Below, piece by piece: positions 43 through 46,961 of a stretch of DNA of 64,000 nucleotides. The stretch lies in the NCBI GenBank assembly GCA_035527835.1, contig DATKZS010000109.1, forward strand, positions 819 through 64,818. The letters run 5' to 3'. The notes below the pieces were generated by a model. That model searched no databases and was not told where the DNA came from. It saw only the letters and a list, made by a program, of their open reading frames with translations. Numbering within the stretch: the first letter of the stretch is position 1; each line of letters begins with the position of its first letter. The stretch comes from a bacterium (GTDB lineage Bacteria > RBG-13-61-14 > DATKZS01). A program made the position numbers and the translations under genes.

Positions 43-1179
43 TTAGGCAATCGCATCGTTTATTCCCCACTTCGGCGGATACCAATAATTGATTTTATTT
101 AGTTTGGGTTTGAAAATCTGCTTAATCCTTTTCCTCTTGTTGTTACCTTGAATATCCGGATGAGCAATCCTCGCATATTTAGATATTTCGCAAAAAAGAT
201 TCTGGCAATCAACAAGCTTAAGTCTTCTGCCCCAGATAGTCTTAAATTGTATATCGAGCATATTGAAAAATTCATCCTGTCTTTCTGTAACCATCCTTAT
301 GAGATCCATCTCGTTAATTCCACCTAGATCGGAGAAGCACTTTCTAATCCCATCAATAGCTCCCGGCCCAGGGATAACAAATTGCATTTCAGAGAAGTTT
401 AAGACCTTACTGTAGTTAATATCGGTAACTAACTGAAAGGCCAGGAAGTCTCCTATTAGAGGATAAAATTTCAGTAGCTCAAAGGCATGCTCCATGCTTT
501 CAGACTCTGATAATTTTAAGGGAAGATCGTCCTCAATCATCATTTCAATTAATCTTAATATGTTTCTATGTTTCCTTTTAAGACGTAACCCTTTCGCCCT
601 TGAGGGCATGATATAAGCGGCAGAGAAAATTGGGGATCCTGAACGCATCGCTTTCATTAATATCGAATCAAAGCATTTATATGAATAATCAGCATAATTA
701 ATTGTTCCAACTTCCTTGCTTATTATTTCCCATGTCTCGATCTTGTTGAATAGCCTAAAAAGCAATATTCGAAACACGGTATCACTATTAGACCAATCTC
801 CATTATAAATTACATTTCTTATCATATACTGGCTCACGCGGTCAGATGCCCGATATGCATTTGTAAACTTGTATTTCTGTAGAATTTTATCTTCTGTCCA
901 TGGGGGCCTTTCGTTTGAAAGTCTTCTGAAAAATATATTTTGTCTTTCAGCCGCAAACCTCCAAAAAGTCTCAAACACTTTTGTCGGCTTTGCTGGAAAT
1001 AAGCGGGAATAAAGATCGGCATTGTTCAGTTGTTTACCATAATGCTCCTTTTCTTCAAATGCCTCAAACGATCTCTGCAATGGAGTTTCAAAGGCATTAC
1101 TATTATTAATAAGAGATGATTCGGATTTTATCCCCCCTTTTTTCATGTCTTTTCCGCTTCTTTGTTCTCTTTGTTCCAA
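43..1179 (-). CDS. hypothetical protein (378 aa) in low-GC island; possibly nucleotide/DNA-modification related
   Basis: Long ORF in a region of clearly lower GC than the rest of the window, with an AT-rich, Lys/Asn/Ile-rich composition. Its 3' end overlaps the next ORF's 5' end by 37 nt. I could not assign any family with confidence. Confidence 0.5.
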   Translation of the reverse strand: MEQREQRSGKDMKKGGIKSESSLINNSNAFETPLQRSFEAFEEKEHYGKQLNNADLYSRLFPAKPTKVFETFWRFAAERQNIFFRRLSNERPPWTEDKILQKYKFTNAYRASDRVSQYMIRNVIYNGDWSNSDTVFRILLFRLFNKIETWEIISKEVGTINYADYSYKCFDSILMKAMRSGSPIFSAAYIMPSRAKGLRLKRKHRNILRLIEMMIEDDLPLKLSESESMEHAFELLKFYPLIGDFLAFQLVTDINYSKVLNFSEMQFVIPGPGAIDGIRKCFSDLGGINEMDLIRMVTERQDEFFNMLDIQFKTIWGRRLKLVDCQNLFCEISKYARIAHPDIQGNNKRKRIKQIFKPKLNKINYWYPPKWGINDAIA

Positions 1180-1547
1180 TCAGGAATTGTCTCCTTAAGC
1201 TTACTAATGAATTCTGAAGCATCTTTCTTTTTGACCTTGCCTGGAGCCGCAACTGTTGCTATGCAATGCACAGTTGTGAGCTGCAATCCCATTTCATGCG
1301 CCATGAACTGTCCCAATTGATAAAGGCCGAGATAATTTCCATATGCCCTTTCAAAGATGTGTTGCTTCGCGTAAAGTCCGATCACGATAAGATCGTTCTC
1401 CTCAGGAGAAAACAAGACATGCTGAAGGCAAGGAAAGCCCCTTCGCCTTTGATGAGAATGATCCAAGGCCGGGTCAAATATCGCTGCCTGAAGCGCGCTT
1501 CGGCGATGGTTATCTTTGTCTACAAAGGTTTCTATTATATGATCCAA
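1143..1547 (-). CDS. nucleoside 2-deoxyribosyltransferase-like (NDT/DNPH1-fold) protein, 134 aa
   Basis: The segment NDLIVIGLYA...AHEMGLQ...APGKV resembles the NDT core NDIMLGVYI...GMELGYA...GK with its catalytic Glu. The gene lies in the same low-GC island and is co-oriented with the 378-aa ORF. Confidence 0.4.
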   Translation of the reverse strand: MDHIIETFVDKDNHRRSALQAAIFDPALDHSHQRRRGFPCLQHVLFSPEENDLIVIGLYAKQHIFERAYGNYLGLYQLGQFMAHEMGLQLTTVHCIATVAAPGKVKKKDASEFISKLKETIPDWNKENKEAEKT

Positions 1548-16226: not shown

Positions 16227-17159
16227 ATGGGTAAGGCAAATAAGCAAAAGCCCGATAGCAAGGCAAAGGCTGGATGTTTTAGGTATCCTCTAATTGTTAT
16301 TATTGCCTTCTTTATCTATGCCCCTCCTGTTTGTGTGAGCAAGTCTCAAAACCATATATTCGTAGATGGTCCTTCTGATCTTTATGATATCCATAGCCTG
16401 GCTCGGAGAGGCAAGACCCCTCTTGTCATTATCTACACCCTATTTAGTCCCAAATTGGTGAATTCGATTGATGATGGTAAGACCCCTCTCCATCTAGCAG
16501 CGGCAAACGGCCATACTTTCATGGTTCACTATTTGGTTTGGATAAAGGCTGACGTAAACAATAGGGGTCGAACCACGCCGCTAGAAGAAGCTCTCATCAG
16601 CGCCGCCAATATTAATCGCGCCAACCGCATTGCAAAGTATCTTATTGATCATGGATCTAAAATAAATCCTAAATCGGGTAGAGCGCCATTAAGCGTTGCT
16701 GTTTCCTATTGTAATACAGAAATGGCAAGCTATCTAATTGATAAAGGGGCGGATGTCAATTATGGCTCTCCGATTCTGCTCGCTACTCGTTGTGATGGTA
16801 ACATGTTAAAACTACTTGTGGATCATGGAGCAAATATTAACGCACGTTATAGGGATGGGAGGACTTTCCTGCACCAATTGGTTCTTGAAATGCCGAGTCC
16901 TCGATATGAACTCTTTCCTATACTTGCCGAAAATGGGATTGATCTCAATGCACAGGACGAACAAGGAAATACCTTTGTTCATTTGGCAGTTAATAAGGGA
17001 GATATAAAATTTATAGAACTTGCCATTGAGTATGGCGCTGCTGTGAATATCAATAATAATGAAGGAAAATCTCCTCTTGACCTAGCATTGGAAAAACCCA
17101 AGTATAAGATAACTGAGATTATAATTAACCAGCTGATAAATGAAGCTTCCATAAAATAG
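16227..17159 (+). CDS. ankyrin-repeat protein with N-terminal signal/TM segment (low-GC island)
   Basis: Ankyrin motifs GKTPLHLAAANGH...LV are repeated several times. The region is AT-rich relative to its flanks, and a GGAGGG Shine-Dalgarno precedes the start. Confidence 0.8.
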   Translation: MGKANKQKPDSKAKAGCFRYPLIVIIAFFIYAPPVCVSKSQNHIFVDGPSDLYDIHSLARRGKTPLVIIYTLFSPKLVNSIDDGKTPLHLAAANGHTFMVHYLVWIKADVNNRGRTTPLEEALISAANINRANRIAKYLIDHGSKINPKSGRAPLSVAVSYCNTEMASYLIDKGADVNYGSPILLATRCDGNMLKLLVDHGANINARYRDGRTFLHQLVLEMPSPRYELFPILAENGIDLNAQDEQGNTFVHLAVNKGDIKFIELAIEYGAAVNINNNEGKSPLDLALEKPKYKITEIIINQLINEASIK

Positions 17160-19370: not shown

Positions 19371-19446
19371 TGGTAGGCGCGCGCGGGCTTGAACCGCGGA
19401 CCCCTACCGTGTCAGGGTAGTGCTCTCCCAACTGAGCTACGCGCCT
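19371..19446 (-). tRNA. tRNA-Val (anticodon GAC)
   Basis: The 76-nt cloverleaf has acceptor AGGCGCG/CGCGCCT, D-arm GCTCAGTTGGGAGAGC, anticodon loop CTGACAC, T-arm CGCGGTTCAAGCCCGCG, and an encoded CCA. Confidence 0.9.
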
Positions 19447-38164: not shown

Positions 38165-41100
38165 ATGATCACGGCAACCGCGAAAAAGAAGATGGGGATC
38201 ATGCTGGCTCTGTTAATGGTCGTTCTGCCCGGCAGCGGCGGCGCGGCGGAGGTCAACAATTTCATCGGGACGGGCGGCTCGGGCTTCGGCGTGGGCAGCA
38301 CCTTTCCGGGCCCGTGTCTGCCCTTCGGCATGGCGCGTCCGGGCCCGGACACGGCACGGCTGGGCGTTTCCTTAAGCTTTTACCATTGCGGGGGCTATTA
38401 TTATTCCGACGGCCAGGTGCGCGGCTTCAGCCAGTTCCGCCTCTCCGGCATCGGCGCGGTGGACTACGGCAACGTGCTGGTCATGCCGACGCTCAACCGG
38501 TCCGGGCATTATGACGATGAGTCCAGCTACCGCCAGAGGTTCGAGCATAAGAGCGAGCAGGCCGACCCCGGCTATTACGCCGTGACCCTGGAGAGCTCCG
38601 GCATCCGCGCTGAGCTTACCGCGACCGAGCACTGCGGGCTCCACCGCTTCACTTTTCCGACGGCCGGCCGCGGGCGGATCATTATCAACGCGGCGCACGC
38701 CAACGCCAAGGACGGCGTGTGCGCGGCGGAGGTGGAGGTCGCGCCGGTCTCGCGCGAGGTCACGGGCCGCGCGGTGAGCTGCGGGAGCTTGAGCGGCCGT
38801 AACGGGGGCGTCGAGATATTCTTCGCGGCGCGGCTTAGCCGGCCTATCCTCACGAGCGGCTTTTCGCAAGACGGCGCGGTGGCGTGGGTGGAGGTCGAGA
38901 CCGGACCGGACGACCCGGCGCTGGTGGCGGTCGGCCTCTCCTTTATCAGCGTGGAGCAGGCGCGGAGGCACCTGGACGGGGAGGTCAAGGGCAAGAGCTT
39001 TGACCTGGTTCGCGCCGACGCGGAGCTTAAGTGGGCGCGGGCGCTCAAGCTCATCGAGATCAGCGGCGGCACGCCGGACCAGCGCGCGATTTTTTACACG
39101 GCGCTGTATCACAGTGAGATCATGCCCACGGACTTCACCGAGTCCGGCGGGCTCTACCGCGGCTTTGACGAGAAGGTCCACGAGGCGCGGGGCTTCACCT
39201 ACTACACGGACTTTTCGTTGTGGGACACGTTCCGGACGCTGCACCCTCTGCTCACCCTGCTCCTGCCGGAGCGCTCCGGCGACATGATGCAATCGCTCAC
39301 GCTGATGGCCGAGCAGGGCGGGTATCTGCCGCGCTGGCCCACCGGATACCGCTACACCTCGTGCATGATCGGCCAAAACGCGGACAACGTGATCGCCGAC
39401 GCGTACGTGAAGGGCGTGCGCAACTTCGACGCGGCCGCGGCCTATGCCGCCATGCGCCAGGCGGCCACGGAGCCCATGCCGCCCGGCCGGGGCTACCCGG
39501 AGCTTGACGGACTCGCCGAGTACATGAGCCAGGGCTACGTGCCGGCGGACCGCTACGGCGGCGCCGCGTCCTGGACCATCGAGCTTTCCTATAACGACTT
39601 CGCCATCGCGCAAATGGCGCGGGCGCTGGGCCATGATGAGGACCATGATACGTTCATGGCGCGCTCCGGGAACTGGCGCAACATCTGGGACGCGAAGAGC
39701 GGGTATCTGCGCGGGCGCAAGGCCGACGGCGCTTTTAAATGGCCGTTCGCGGCGTGGGCGTGGACAAGCTATTACGTGGAGGGCGACGCGCGGCAGTGGG
39801 TATGGGCGCCGCTGCACGACGCGCACGGGCTGATCGAGCTGATGGGCGGGCCGGAAAAATTCGCACAGCGGCTGAACGGGTTTTTCGAAAAGAGCGCGGA
39901 GCGGCCGGACACGTTCTTGTGGGACACCTATTACTGGCACGGCAACGAGCCGGACATCCACGCGGCGTATCTTTTCGATTACGCGGGCCGGCCGGACCTC
40001 ACCCAGAAATGGGCGCGCTGGGTCATGGCCGCGAAGTACAAGAACGCGCCCGGCGGACTGGACGGCAACGACGACTGCGGCACGCTCTCGGCGTGGTACG
40101 TCTTCAGCGCGCTGGGCTTCTACCCGGTGGCCGCGACCGACACGTACCTCGTGGGCTCGCCGCTCTTTCCGCGCGCCGTGCTCCACTTGCCCGGCGGAGA
40201 CCTCACGGTGCGCGCCGTCAACGACCCCGCCAAAAACATCTACGTGCGCCGCGTCTCCATCAACGGCCGGCCGCTCGAGCGTCCGTGGTTCAGGCATGAC
40301 GACATCGCGCACGGCGGCGAGATCGTGTTCGAGATGTCCGCCGAGCCCGGAGCGTGGAACGCTCCGGCCGCAGCTCCCGTGGCGGCGCCGCCTACGGCGG
40401 CGGGCGACGCCGCGTTCATTGACTGGGCGCATCTTAAGAATCCGGTGCTCTCGCTCGAAGACCGCGCGGTCAAGGACCAGGTCGTGGTGTACGACAACGG
40501 CTGGTTTTACATCTTCGCTTCCAACCGCTTCGAAAATAACGATGACGATACCTTTCTCGAGGGGATCCGTTTTTATCGGACGCGCGACTTCAAGACCTAC
40601 GAGCCTTTCTTCGATCCCGACCTCATCACCTATTACCAGGGCCGGCCTGGGTTCCCGGAGTCGCCGGACGTGGTGAACGTGAACGGCGTCTGGCACATGG
40701 TGTTCCAGTCGCGCCTCACCGATCATGAGCATTACCGCCTCTTCCATTCGGTCTCGCACGACCTCATGGACTGGTCGCCCGCGGTCGAGATCGCGCCCGG
40801 GAACAAGCCGAAAGAAAGACAGATTGACGGCGCGCTGGCCTACGAGGGCGGCCATTTCATCCTGGGCTACAAGGGCCGGCAGAAGTTTTACGTGACCCGC
40901 TCCCTGGGCCCGGAGCTTGACGGCGCATGGGAAGCGGCCCGGCGGGCGAGCGCGGGCGGGAAATGGGCGGAGAATTTTCAGTTCATCCGGATTGACGGTG
41001 CCTGGCGCATGATCGCCACCGCCATCAACCCCAAGGTCCTCAAGCGCTGCGGCTACACCTGCGGCCACGAGGCCTACATCTACGAGATGGACGGCAAAGG

Positions 41101-41353
41101 CGGTCAGGATGACGACTGGACGCGCTGGACCGACATGCGCCGCCTCGAAGTTCCGACGGAGGACTGGAACCGCGTGATGATTGACAACTCGGCCTATCTC
41201 TGCGACTGGCGGCAATTCGACGGCTGGTTCTACCTGTTCTACGCCGGGTGCAACGACGACGGCCGGTTCCAGAAGCAGGGCCACGGCCAGATCGGGGTGG
41301 CGAGGTCAAGGGACCTGATCACGTGGAGACTTCCGGGGCAGATGGATGATTGA
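38165..41353 (+). CDS. secreted GH92-family alpha-mannosidase with extra C-terminal beta-propeller-like domain of about 300 aa
   Basis: A signal peptide is present, as is the GH92 N-terminal signature FIGTGGSGFGVGSTFPGPCLPFGMARPGPDT. The C-terminal domain with WFYIF and GVWHMVF motifs resembles GH43/GH130-type propellers. Confidence 0.7.
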   Translation: MITATAKKKMGIMLALLMVVLPGSGGAAEVNNFIGTGGSGFGVGSTFPGPCLPFGMARPGPDTARLGVSLSFYHCGGYYYSDGQVRGFSQFRLSGIGAVDYGNVLVMPTLNRSGHYDDESSYRQRFEHKSEQADPGYYAVTLESSGIRAELTATEHCGLHRFTFPTAGRGRIIINAAHANAKDGVCAAEVEVAPVSREVTGRAVSCGSLSGRNGGVEIFFAARLSRPILTSGFSQDGAVAWVEVETGPDDPALVAVGLSFISVEQARRHLDGEVKGKSFDLVRADAELKWARALKLIEISGGTPDQRAIFYTALYHSEIMPTDFTESGGLYRGFDEKVHEARGFTYYTDFSLWDTFRTLHPLLTLLLPERSGDMMQSLTLMAEQGGYLPRWPTGYRYTSCMIGQNADNVIADAYVKGVRNFDAAAAYAAMRQAATEPMPPGRGYPELDGLAEYMSQGYVPADRYGGAASWTIELSYNDFAIAQMARALGHDEDHDTFMARSGNWRNIWDAKSGYLRGRKADGAFKWPFAAWAWTSYYVEGDARQWVWAPLHDAHGLIELMGGPEKFAQRLNGFFEKSAERPDTFLWDTYYWHGNEPDIHAAYLFDYAGRPDLTQKWARWVMAAKYKNAPGGLDGNDDCGTLSAWYVFSALGFYPVAATDTYLVGSPLFPRAVLHLPGGDLTVRAVNDPAKNIYVRRVSINGRPLERPWFRHDDIAHGGEIVFEMSAEPGAWNAPAAAPVAAPPTAAGDAAFIDWAHLKNPVLSLEDRAVKDQVVVYDNGWFYIFASNRFENNDDDTFLEGIRFYRTRDFKTYEPFFDPDLITYYQGRPGFPESPDVVNVNGVWHMVFQSRLTDHEHYRLFHSVSHDLMDWSPAVEIAPGNKPKERQIDGALAYEGGHFILGYKGRQKFYVTRSLGPELDGAWEAARRASAGGKWAENFQFIRIDGAWRMIATAINPKVLKRCGYTCGHEAYIYEMDGKGGQDDDWTRWTDMRRLEVPTEDWNRVMIDNSAYLCDWRQFDGWFYLFYAGCNDDGRFQKQGHGQIGVARSRDLITWRLPGQMDD

Positions 41354-41459
41354 TATGATATTGCAAAGCATTTTCTTGCGTCACTTCCTGGATTTAAATT
41401 TTCAGATCAGGTAAAATTGATATGGAAGTGAAAGTAATGGTTCTACGAAGGGGGGTACC

Positions 41460-42386
41460 ATGCCAAAAAAACGAGTTGAACTGGTAACTCATATATTCAA
41501 AGGCGCTCGTTTCGAGGATCACGGCATTGATATAGACGTCCTTGAGGAGTTGATTGTATATAAAAAAATCTTGGTTGAAACAGCCAAGGAACTTTGGCGA
41601 CGTCATAACCCTGATCGTCAAAGATTGCCGAAAAATTTTGAAGATTCTCTCTGCATCAAGTTTTATGAGCTTCGGGAAGGCTCAACTGGCGTTCCGATGA
41701 TGCGGGAAATTGAATATGATAACGGCGAACTCCCTCTTCCACGGCCTGAGGATGAACTGGATGAGGCTGTGAAGGTTGTTGCGGAAGCGGAAGATGCGGC
41801 CAATAATGATTACCCGCTCCCGGATAATTTTCCTAAAAATATCATTCCACTGTTCGATAAATATGGAGACAGTTTGAGAGAAGACGAGAGTTTTGAGCAC
41901 CAGCCGGCAAACTCCGAACGACGTATCATTTATAATAAGAAGACTCGTGAACGGTTGCATAGTTGGTCAGACGGTCAATACGAAGACATGATTGAGCTGA
42001 GCGGGGAAGTCCGAGCCGCAGACCTTGACCAAGGAAATTTCACCATTCGTCTGGATGACGGGACCAAAGTCGCCGGAAAATTTAATCCGAGCCAGGAAGA
42101 AGAGGTAACGCTCGCACTCCGCGAACATGAGAAGAAGAGGCTAAGCGTGAAAGGTAGAGGAGGGTTTTCCTCGCCCGAAGGCAAGCTGAGACGTATTATC
42201 GCCGTGGAGCAAATGATAATTCATCAAGGTAATGGCGACGTTTTTGATGCCAGCGCCCGACCCATTTGGGAAGTCGTTTCCGAGATTGGGGCCTCCGTTC
42301 CCGAAGAGGAATGGGCCAAGGTTCCCACCGATCTTTCGAAAAACCTTGATCATTACTTGTACGGCGCACCCAAGGATGCGAAATGA
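41460..42386 (+). CDS. hypothetical acidic protein (308 aa), putative partner of the downstream PIN toxin (low-GC island)
   Basis: AT-rich codon usage unlike its flanks. The stop overlaps the PIN gene start (ATGA). The C-terminus ends ...KVPTDLSKNLDHYLYGAPKDAK. Confidence 0.5.
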   Translation: MPKKRVELVTHIFKGARFEDHGIDIDVLEELIVYKKILVETAKELWRRHNPDRQRLPKNFEDSLCIKFYELREGSTGVPMMREIEYDNGELPLPRPEDELDEAVKVVAEAEDAANNDYPLPDNFPKNIIPLFDKYGDSLREDESFEHQPANSERRIIYNKKTRERLHSWSDGQYEDMIELSGEVRAADLDQGNFTIRLDDGTKVAGKFNPSQEEEVTLALREHEKKRLSVKGRGGFSSPEGKLRRIIAVEQMIIHQGNGDVFDASARPIWEVVSEIGASVPEEEWAKVPTDLSKNLDHYLYGAPKDAK

Positions 42387-42793
42387 AAAAAATTTTCGCC
42401 GATTCCTCTTATTGGATTGCTCTTCTTAATCCTCGAGATGAACATCATGATAAGGCAAAAATAGTTTCTTCTTCTCTCGGACAGATACATATCGTCACCA
42501 GCGACATGGTTTTAACGGAATTCTTAAATTCCTTTTCCACTAGAGGAACTTTATTGCGAAAAAGGGCAGCAGAAACCGCCAAGGGAATCTTGAACAATCC
42601 CAATGTGAAAGTTGTTGCTCAAACCAGGGAGCAATTCAATGAAGCCCTCTCGCTATTTTCCGACCGAGAGGACAAGGAATGGGGCCTTACTGACTGTTCC
42701 TCCATTAAGATCTGCATTGATAACAAGATCAATGAGGTGTTAACCGCCGACCATCATTTTCAACAAGCCGGCTTGATCGCGTTGTTGTTATAG
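42383..42793 (+). CDS. PIN-domain ribonuclease (VapC-like toxin)
   Basis: The N-terminal FADSSYWIAL motif (first acidic residue) and the later acidic residues TSD and LTDC are present. The length is about 136 aa. Confidence 0.75.
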   Translation: MKKIFADSSYWIALLNPRDEHHDKAKIVSSSLGQIHIVTSDMVLTEFLNSFSTRGTLLRKRAAETAKGILNNPNVKVVAQTREQFNEALSLFSDREDKEWGLTDCSSIKICIDNKINEVLTADHHFQQAGLIALLL

Positions 42794-42817
42794 ACCAGTC
42801 TAGTACTACTTATCTTA

Positions 42818-44134
42818 TCAGTTCCACCCCGCGAGCATCCTCTGGGCCGCATACTTTCCGATGCACAGCGACAGCAGCACGACGGGGGTCCCGAGCTCGT
42901 CGGGGATGACGGAGGCGTCGGAGACGTAGCAGTTCTTGATCCTGGTTTCCAGGTTGTTGTCCACCACGTGTCCGATGCGGGCGGAGCCTCCGGGGTGCGC
43001 GGCCTTGACCGGAGCGGTCCATAACGATGACTTCTTGACCCCGGCCTGAAGCAGAATCTCGCGGGCCCGGGCGTCGCCGGATTCGAGGCGCTTGTGGACT
43101 TCGGGCTCGAGCTTCTTATTGAGTTTCCCGTTCGCGTCAATCGTGCCGGAGACCGGGTCCTTGACCTTGGTCATGATGCCCAGGGTGGTGCGAAGATTCG
43201 GAAGCTGGTCCACACGGAACTTGAGGCCGAGGGATGAGAGTTGGAGGAGCCAGGGCTCGGCCAGGTCGGTGAGCACGAAGCCCTCGGCGGCGTGGAACTG
43301 CCAGGTGCCGGCGGTCATGGGCACGTCGTAGATCGAGCCTTTTTCCTGGCCCGGCCGCCGGCCGTAGGTAAAGACCAGGGGGTCGGTGAAAAAGCCCTGG
43401 CCCGCTTCCTCGATGCCGGAGCGTTTGAGGATGACGGGGGTGCCGAGCCCGCCGGCGGCGATCACCACCTTTTGCGCGCGGACCTCGACCGGCCCTCCCG
43501 GTCCGCGGCCGCGCACGCCCACGGCCTTGCCGTTCTCCTGCATCACCTCATCCACCTTGACCCCGGTCATCAGCGTCATGCCCTGGCCCTGGGCCTGCTT
43601 CACGAACTCGCGGGAGGTCCACTTGGCGCCGCGCTTGCAGCCCAGCATGCACTCACCACAGTCGCGCACGCACTTGTCCGGATTGATGAACTTGGGCAGG
43701 GGCTGCCAGTCAATGCCCAGGGCCCGGGCCGCCTCCATGATGCGGCGGGCGCCGTCGCCGATGAGGCGCTCGGGGAGCGGGGCCACGCCGAGCTCTTCCT
43801 CGAAGGCGTCGGCGTAGGGCATGAGGTCTATGCCGGTCTGTTCCTTGATGAAGGCGGCGGGCTTGGTGGCGGTGCCGCAGTAGATGAGGGACGAGCCGCC
43901 GGTGGTGATGCCGCGGACCATCATGGCGTGTCCGAGCGGCAGCGCGTTCTTGAGGTCCACCTTGGGCAGGACCGAGAGGTGCGAGCCGATCCAGTCGCTG
44001 TCTCCGCCCCACTCCAGCATCGCCACCTTTTTCCCGGCCCGGCAAAGCTCGCGCGCGGCACTGGCCCCGCCCGGGCCCGAGCCCACCACTACCACGTCAT
44101 ATTCCATTGTCATGGCCGTCCCCTCCTTGTTCAT
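42818..44134 (-). CDS. FAD-dependent oxidoreductase (GMC-like)
   Basis: The dinucleotide-binding motif YDVVVVGSGPGG is at the N-terminus. The start may be the later Met (MTMEYD). Confidence 0.7.
   Translation of the reverse strand: MNKEGTAMTMEYDVVVVGSGPGGASAARELCRAGKKVAMLEWGGDSDWIGSHLSVLPKVDLKNALPLGHAMMVRGITTGGSSLIYCGTATKPAAFIKEQTGIDLMPYADAFEEELGVAPLPERLIGDGARRIMEAARALGIDWQPLPKFINPDKCVRDCGECMLGCKRGAKWTSREFVKQAQGQGMTLMTGVKVDEVMQENGKAVGVRGRGPGGPVEVRAQKVVIAAGGLGTPVILKRSGIEEAGQGFFTDPLVFTYGRRPGQEKGSIYDVPMTAGTWQFHAAEGFVLTDLAEPWLLQLSSLGLKFRVDQLPNLRTTLGIMTKVKDPVSGTIDANGKLNKKLEPEVHKRLESGDARAREILLQAGVKKSSLWTAPVKAAHPGGSARIGHVVDNNLETRIKNCYVSDASVIPDELGTPVVLLSLCIGKYAAQRMLAGWN

Positions 44135-46885: not shown

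Positions 46886-46961
<76 letters not shown>

Follow-up and report, generated by a model that had tools for sequence, protein, structure and literature searches.

A VapBC-like cassette with a predicted composite antitoxin related to the PADLOC candidate PDC-M32A

We analyzed a 64,000-nucleotide stretch of bacterial DNA (GTDB lineage RBG-13-61-14; DATKZS01; GenBank assembly GCA_035527835.1, contig DATKZS010000109.1, positions 819 to 64,818 of the forward strand; here called the window) that carries a low-GC cassette of two overlapping genes. Comparative evidence supports the view that this cassette is probably a VapBC-like type II toxin-antitoxin (TA) module that was acquired horizontally and has a composite antitoxin. 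Its first gene, gene A, encodes a 308-residue protein that appears to combine an alpha/beta domain (the N-domain), an OB fold, and a conserved C-terminal tail, and its second, gene B, encodes a 136-residue PIN protein. We hold the toxin-antitoxin core of this reading to be likely and assign a role to the N-domain and OB fold (together, N+OB) with less confidence. On the sequence comparisons set out below, the cassette is best described as a VapBC-type pair with a composite antitoxin and as an unrecognized sibling of the PADLOC candidate PDC-M32.

In the mechanism that we propose, the PIN protein would act as a VapC-type Mg2+-dependent ribonuclease toxin, made by translational coupling with A, and the C-terminal ~45 residues of A would hold it inactive, the tail probably folding onto the surface of the PIN in the manner of VapB tails. 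N+OB (~255 residues) would fill the slot in which antitoxins with the same tail carry a ribbon-helix-helix (RHH) or AbrB-like DNA-binding domain and would most likely control release of the toxin, either by sensing an infection cue or through antitoxin stability or oligomerization. The outcome may be abortive-infection-type defense or stabilization of the defense islands that usually carry the cassette.

The PIN protein and the C-terminal tail of A

The first-pass annotation, made from the letters of the DNA and its open reading frames (ORFs), had named the downstream gene a PIN toxin. Its product matched the Pfam PIN domain above the cutoff (PF01850; E value 2.7e-10, 41.3 bits against 23.6), and the acidic catalytic quartet D7, E46, D104, and D123 was not only kept in the window but invariant in 54 orthologs. 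A 22-member PIN profile searched against all PDB sequences returned a sole match, Mycobacterium tuberculosis VapC20 (5wzf; E 8.7e-15), which is annotated as a 23S rRNA-specific endonuclease and was also matched by the window PIN as a single sequence (E 1.4e-5). The window PIN had no match in PADLOC. We conclude that gene B encodes a predicted VapC-type ribonuclease of a distinct subfamily.

Within the A family, the most conserved stretch was the C terminus, RPIWE..EIGASVP.EEW.KVPTDLSKNLDHYLYG.PK, in which W270, P289, D291, and H298-Y299-L300-Y301 were invariant; we refer to it as the DHYLYG tail. Scanning 185,579 species genomes yielded 80 loci with this tail (numbered L001 onward, with other contigs discussed below), at which it was attached to strikingly different N-terminal regions. 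It followed the full N+OB region at 27 loci (L001 to L027), the N-domain without an OB fold at two (L032 and L033), and an OB fold alone, in proteins of ~140 residues, at L029, L031, L039, and others. In proteins of 80 to 105 residues, it followed ParD-type RHH N termini (PF03693; E 7e-7 and 2e-5, above the cutoff), AbrB/SpoVT-like N termini (MTIRQRVKILPGG..; assigned by eye), and DUF2281-like N termini (weak matches). The tail was the sole part common to partners of at least six architectures. A tail-only profile retrieved 838 proteins, the best 120 of which were unannotated and 53 to 83 residues long; these results define a large unannotated family of predicted PIN-antitoxin tails, which has at least 838 members and combines with N-terminal regions of at least six kinds. 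Neither the tail family nor the N-domain is described in the libraries and literature searched, and the DHYLYG motif itself had no literature match.

The genes that follow the tail were examined at the same loci. Homologs of the window PIN accounted for 61 of 77 downstream ORFs (phmmer E 1e-16 to 1e-49), and 51 of these 61 homologous pairs shared the 4-bp overlap seen in the window. A tblastn search added five more PINs, of which two are truncated at contig ends and one is a 52-residue remnant, so that a PIN of the same subfamily lay directly downstream of the tail at 66 of 80 loci. The first-pass annotation had suggested that the extreme C terminus of A resembles the tail of PIN-associated antitoxins and had called for a survey of homologous neighborhoods; the survey agrees with that suggestion, both in the spread of the tail over at least six architectures and in its co-occurrence with PIN genes. 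Because no other element is shared by every partner of this PIN subfamily, the tail would be the toxin-specific neutralizing element, and we infer that it is a separate, PIN-linked module and the predicted neutralizer.

A neighbor-joining tree of the PINs placed those with long and short partners among one another, which means that the N-terminal part of the antitoxin has been exchanged repeatedly. The PIN nearest to that of the window was the one at L039, whose antitoxin is an OB-only protein of 141 residues.

These features, taken together, resemble VapBC: a PIN toxin with four acidic residues, an antitoxin gene that comes first, a 4-bp overlap, and a C-terminal tail that is predicted to be toxin specific. 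Short relatives with the same tail likewise carry RHH (ParD-type) or AbrB-like N termini, as classical VapB proteins do. The tail may also have a counterpart in the C terminus of VapB20.

Toxin genes look decayed at several of the loci, three of which are described here. At L001 (4921-5367) and L057 (4126-4425), the downstream frames begin like a PIN (MRQVFADADFF.. and MKVAFVDT.., respectively) and then diverge, while the tail gene is intact; at L059 (4126-4281), just a 52-residue PIN remnant follows an intact antitoxin-like gene.

The N-domain, the OB fold, and the relationship to PDC-M32

Gene A encodes an acidic protein (pI 5.04, net charge -17), as had been noted at first pass. Its 246 homologs (~305 residues, 47 to 71% identical) are all annotated "hypothetical," and none has a Pfam domain. 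A itself had no match in Pfam or NCBIfam and no PDB sequence match; in the Pfam scan, nothing was found in A at an E value of ≤1 or in 24 family members at an E value of ≤0.1, SSB and other nucleic-acid-binding families included. The annotation had also remarked on the absence of a recognizable DNA-binding fold, and this held for the family: an N-terminal RHH, AbrB, Phd/YefM, or helix-turn-helix (HTH) domain was not found in A, and no Pfam match was obtained for A or 23 relatives.

Three-dimensional models point instead to an alpha/beta domain followed by an OB fold. An AlphaFold2 model of full-length A, built from 24 homologs, had a mean predicted local distance difference test score (pLDDT) of 80.8, and a second model restricted to residues 1 to 173 had a pLDDT of 88.8 and a predicted template modeling score (pTM) of 0.86. 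No solved structural counterpart of the N-domain was found, and it is a possible new fold. In the predicted structure, residues 173 to 256 have the topology of an OB fold and resemble SSB, RPA, and PriB; the conserved residues F194, F208, R185, and K203 lie inside this fold, and one OB-only relative had a weak POT1PC match (E 0.007, below the cutoff). Residues 257 to 308 were modeled with lower confidence (pLDDT 52 to 75) as a linker and then short helices. All three parts of A are acidic, with pI values of 5.07, 5.68, and 4.45 for the N-domain, OB fold, and tail (family medians 5.3, 5.3, and 4.5).

Two natural variants of A lack the OB fold precisely, with the N-domain joined straight to the tail (L032, 3887-4699; L033, 3956-4762). 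Their PINs grouped in the tree with that of L014, a locus of the full-length type, pointing to a recent loss of the OB fold. One PIN subfamily thus offers a natural truncation series of partners (tail only, OB plus tail, N-domain plus tail, and N+OB plus tail) on which the role of large extra antitoxin domains in defense-type TA systems can be tested directly.

The N+OB region is related to a known PADLOC profile. Residues 7 to 256 of A matched PDC-M32A with an E value of 4.6e-54, covering only positions 5 to 254 of the 375 in the profile, whereas genuine PDC-M32A members match positions 5 to 372. A Limnohabitans plasmid and a Rhodococcus plasmid (L081 and L082) carry genuine PDC-M32 pairs, as do metagenome and genome contigs (L089, L090/L091, and L092). 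In these pairs, an A protein of 373 to 401 residues overlaps a B protein of 129 to 147 residues, both without a Pfam domain, and PDC-M32A ends in a C-terminal domain of ~120 residues with the motif GW.DG...YPT..G..Q.EW. An exhaustive hidden Markov model search with an N+OB profile retrieved 1822 cluster representatives, with E values of ≤1e-30 for 816. Their lengths were bimodal: the shorter group, at about 300 to 313 residues, ends in variants of the DHYLYG tail, and the longer group, at about 370 to 390 residues, ends in the PDC-M32A C-terminal domain. Since N+OB also occurs on PDC-M32A, with a different C terminus and a different small partner, it appears to be a swappable accessory unit, in line with the suggestion of the first-pass annotation that an antitoxin could be fused here to a novel sensor or accessory domain.

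The two cassettes are therefore alike in the first ~255 residues of A, which are homologous to PDC-M32A, in their overlapping two-gene operon with a second gene of about 130 to 147 residues, and, at loci other than the window, in their recurrent embedding in type I restriction-modification (R-M) operons and defense islands. They differ in that the ~120-residue C-terminal domain of PDC-M32A is replaced here by a 45-residue tail and PDC-M32B by an unrelated PIN. Because A matches PDC-M32A partially and a PIN stands in place of PDC-M32B, PADLOC would not call the cassette, which has neither a full-length PDC-M32A match nor an adjacent PDC-M32B. The shared 255-residue module, present in about 1800 protein clusters, links a classical TA family to PDC-M32, which by analogy may itself be a TA-like pair with A as neutralizer or sensor and B as toxin. 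The PDC systems are 145 candidates, put forward by "guilt-by-embedding" because they occur within BREX, DISARM, or type I R-M systems (Payne et al., bioRxiv 10.1101/2024.01.29.577857). The only other paper that names PDC-M32 reports just a PADLOC hit (PMC12429752).

PDC-M32B had no PDB sequence relative, and the idea that it is a divergent PIN was ruled out (hhalign probability 0.6%). In one 343-residue protein (P0388), N+OB is followed by a PDC-M32B-like C terminus (..HVVIDFTELSGNQVEKKAKKLRSVAEARGW..), so that it looks like a fusion of A and B or else a PDC-M32 pair with a frameshift. The components of PDC-M32 correspond to phrog_30544 and phrog_31579, PHROGs families of unknown function, and A matched phrog_30544 with an E value of 2e-19. 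The BFVD structures that matched the model of A (E 3e-9 to 1e-6) were a Leptospira phage LE1 protein and two metagenomic phage proteins.

These relationships bear on what N+OB does. It could be an autoregulatory or dimerization domain that replaces RHH or AbrB in an ordinary addiction VapBC; the OB fold would then bind the operator, the leader of the mRNA, or single-stranded nucleic acid, and the cassette would merely stabilize mobile DNA such as R-M islands. The likeness to SSB, RPA, and PriB and the four conserved residues inside the fold fit such a role; the ~140-residue antitoxins that consist of OB fold and tail place the OB fold where short forms have a DNA-binding domain; and TA modules generally sit on mobile DNA, as the low GC of this cassette would have it. 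We nevertheless regard this account as unlikely, while giving it some weight. The OB fold is acidic across the family and the N-domain likewise (median pI of 5.3 for each), and none of 24 members had a Pfam SSB or other nucleic-acid-binding match. No significant palindrome was found upstream, although that test showed no enrichment for long, mid, or short classes and so lacked discriminating power, even for RHH forms. Autoregulation also leaves unexplained a 170-residue extra domain that is conserved and is common to PDC-M32A across the 1822 clusters.

An accessory control or sensor role for N+OB is favored by its attachment, in PDC-M32, to an unrelated C terminus and toxin, together with the occurrence of both cassettes in defense islands; N+OB would be an accessory region and probably a sensor. 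A published precedent is Panacea. Multidomain PanA antitoxins neutralize the toxin through a separate C-terminal element, and their shared globular domain is the proposed sensor (Ernits et al. 2023, PMC10440598). As with PanA (DUF4065), a globular domain appears here on antitoxins of unrelated toxins together with a toxin-specific C-terminal element, a likeness read from sequence. The differences are that no DUF4065 match was found in A or 24 family members and that N+OB is so far associated with two toxin classes, against dozens for Panacea. The general principle of modular antitoxins and of defense-associated TA systems is already established. A more specific version, which we put forward tentatively and hold to be somewhat less than an even chance, is that N+OB is a new infection-sensing module without structural precedent that is combined with the DHYLYG tail for a VapC-like PIN and with the PDC-M32A C-terminal domain for PDC-M32B, a phage cue releasing the toxin. 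Candidates for such a cue are phage proteins, anti-restriction factors, and replication intermediates. If true, this would establish a Panacea-like family of sensor-antitoxin defense systems nested in R-M operons and supply the first mechanistic hypothesis for PDC-M32.

Defense islands as a recurrent setting

Among the 27 full-length genome loci, the commonest neighbors were type I R-M genes, both by Pfam domain (Methylase_S at 7, ResIII at 6, and N6_Mtase at 4) and by PADLOC (REase_I at 7 and Specificity_I at 7). Type I R-M genes flank the pair directly at seven of the 27 loci (L001 to L004, L010, L011, and L019), in the overall order hsdR-hsdS-[A-PIN]-hsdM; hsdR/hsdS lies upstream at all seven, and hsdM was detected downstream at L003, L011, and L019. 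Defense genes also adjoin the A-PIN pair in all three metagenome contexts examined. The neighbors are a Gabija-like OLD-TOPRIM/UvrD pair and a transposase at L083 and type ISP and DNA methylase genes at L085, and at L087 the pair lies within a type I R-M operon in the order hsdR, Y1 transposase, hsdS, A-PIN, hsdM. PDC-M32 is similarly nested in a type I R-M operon at L090, with a KAP NTPase and AbiH nearby. The defense-type setting that the first-pass annotation had anticipated is thus borne out by seven of the 27 full-length loci and by others next to Gabija-like or type ISP genes; it does not extend to the window.

The operon at L087 (3432-11049) has two passengers embedded in it. A Y1 (IS200/IS605-type) transposase separates hsdR from hsdS, and the A-PIN pair separates hsdS from a split hsdM, whose HsdM_N and N6_Mtase parts were called as separate genes.

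An RNase within a type I R-M locus is known from PrrC/EcoprrI, in which an ABC-ATPase anticodon nuclease has its activity coupled to the R-M complex and has no separate antitoxin. The nesting of an RNase gene in a type I R-M operon is common to both and points to a second line of response once restriction is countered. The cassette described here differs in carrying its own predicted neutralizer and in occurring often without R-M genes, as in the window.

The same setting could mean that A is an adaptor or targeting subunit, in which N+OB recruits an RNA or DNA substrate, or the type I R-M complex itself, and the tail tethers the PIN within a constitutive RNA-processing or effector complex. 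The seven loci among type I R-M genes, with their echo of PrrC, and the presence of an OB fold speak for such a subunit. We consider it improbable: short homologs carry the tail on a classical antitoxin domain (ParD RHH, E 7e-7), with the antitoxin gene first and a 4-bp overlap; many loci, the window included, have no R-M neighbor; and the tail proteins at L001, L057, and L059 are orphans with a decayed PIN. Loss of the toxin first is the usual decay route of TA pairs.

Several points weigh against the reading of the cassette as a VapBC-like module with a sensor-type antitoxin. With the NCBIfam VapC model NF047959, the window PIN scored 27 bits against a cutoff of 80, and with TIGR00028 it scored 22.3 bits against 73.6, so that the VapC thresholds, including that of the equivalog, were not reached. 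The tail had no match in the PDB and has no solved or annotated relative in Pfam, NCBIfam, or the PDB. In these respects the pair departs from VapBC, as it does in the size of the 308-residue partner and in the novel 170-residue alpha/beta domain and OB fold that take the place of RHH, AbrB, Phd, or HTH. The arrangement of the domains is uncertain in the full-length model of A (pTM 0.56), and the OB fold that it predicts could mean nucleic acid binding for ordinary autoregulation and not sensing. No relative of the long A form was found in viral contigs, although BFVD and PHROGs do hold PDC-M32A-type relatives, and PDC-M32 is itself a "guilt-by-embedding" candidate (bioRxiv 10.1101/2024.01.29.577857). 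No defense gene adjoins the cassette in the window, where the neighbors are a glycoside hydrolase and an oxidoreductase. Finally, binding of the tail to the PIN and toxicity of the PIN are both predictions from sequence.

Composition and origin of the cassette and other features of the window

The cassette has a GC content of 0.459, compared with 0.651 in its flanks and 0.630 in the whole window; equally low GC was reached in only 2% of equal-sized windows across the 64 kb, and these fall in three islands. GC at third codon positions (GC3) was 0.466 in A and 0.467 in the PIN gene, compared with 0.87 in the GH92 gene, 0.89 in the oxidoreductase gene, and 0.88 in the ETF-alpha gene. The first-pass annotation had described two AT-rich genes, joined by an ATGA overlap, between a GH92 gene and an oxidoreductase gene, and each part of that description was confirmed, the neighbors by Pfam (Table 1). 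It had placed the start of the module at 41354, which is the boundary of the island and lies in intergenic DNA; gene A begins further downstream.

Table 1. Features of the cassette and its immediate neighbors (positions in the window)
Feature	Position	Strand	Description
Low-GC island	41354..42817	.	lies between the GH92 stop (41353) and that of the convergent GMC oxidoreductase (42818)
Intergenic leader	41354..41459	+	AT-rich; precedes gene A
Shine-Dalgarno site of gene A	41447-41455	+	GAAGGGGGG; read from the sequence
Gene A	41460..42386	+	ORF, 308 aa; acidic composite antitoxin candidate (N-domain, OB fold, tail)
N-domain (residues 1-172)	41460..41975	+	predicted alpha/beta domain; common to PADLOC PDC-M32A and phrog_30544
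OB-fold domain (residues 173-256)	41976..42227	+	AlphaFold2 model
Conserved tail (residues 265-305)	42252..42374	+	ARPIWEVVSEIGASVPEEEWAKVPTDLSKNLDHYLYGAPK; predicted PIN-neutralizing module
Shine-Dalgarno site of the PIN gene	42372-42376	+	AAGGA; read from the sequence
ATGA start/stop overlap of A and PIN genes	42383..42386	+	TGA stop 42384-42386, ATG 42383-42385
Gene B	42383..42793	+	ORF, 136 aa; VapC-type PIN, predicted toxin
GH92 glycoside hydrolase	38165..41353	+	left neighbor (Pfam)
GMC-type FAD oxidoreductase	42818..44134	-	right neighbor, convergent (Pfam)

Many homologous cassettes were also GC poor. At 37 of 61 homologous loci, the cassette had a lower GC content than its flanks (median difference -0.05), and the difference of -0.19 in the window was the largest. 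The hosts of the tail loci are spread patchily over Verrucomicrobiota, Planctomycetota, Omnitrophota, Acidobacteriota, Proteobacteria, Clostridia, WOR-3, and others. Given the GC3 gap, the GC-poor cassettes elsewhere, and the patchy phyletic spread, the cassette is by all appearances horizontally acquired.

Traces of the insertion event itself were also sought. Around the cassette, only short repeats at chance level were found, with no flanking repeats or mobile-element ends. In a search for an empty site, 18 metagenome loci had orthologs of the oxidoreductase (62 to 82% identity), and in none of the 18 did A, the PIN gene, or GH92 adjoin it. Synteny around the oxidoreductase is not kept at these loci, which leaves composition and phyletic pattern as the evidence for an insertion. 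The window contains a tRNA-Val(GAC) gene at 19371-19446 (minus strand) and a tRNA-Gly(CCC) gene at 46887-46961 (plus strand); neither adjoins the cassette, which therefore has no tRNA-linked integration site.

So extreme a mismatch in codon composition (GC3 of 0.47 against 0.88) might be expected of a recently landed selfish passenger, silent or decaying in its host and without current function. No sigma-70 consensus promoter was found on the plus strand upstream of A, no defense genes are nearby, and copies at other loci have decayed, all of which would suit such a passenger. Even so, we hold this to be very improbable. Both ORFs are intact, full length, and preceded by Shine-Dalgarno sites, and no invariant residue of the family or of the PIN catalytic quartet is missing; the promoter scan, for its part, was limited to the sigma-70 consensus, which may not be that of the host.

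The leader of gene A contains a weak direct repeat, ATTGATATG(A/G), at 41349-41366 and 41416-41433 (67-bp spacing). Its first copy overlaps the GH92 stop codon, and it may be a chance occurrence or a regulatory site.

The ORF of the left neighbor of the cassette encodes 1062 residues, and the Pfam GH92 domains span only residues 30 to 725; the C-terminal ~330 residues had no Pfam match at an E value of ≤1 and may be an unannotated fused domain.

Two further low-GC islands lie elsewhere in the window. The island at 43-1547 (minus strand; GC 0.37 to 0.50) encodes a 378-residue protein with a 5-hmdU DNA kinase helical domain (PF18723; E 5.7e-107), a domain with a known link to thymidine hypermodification, and a 134-residue ORF without a Pfam match (1143..1547) that overlaps this gene. 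The island at 16227-17159 (plus strand; GC about 0.45) encodes an ankyrin-repeat protein of 310 residues (PF12796; E 1e-33) whose N-terminal segment is hydrophobic.

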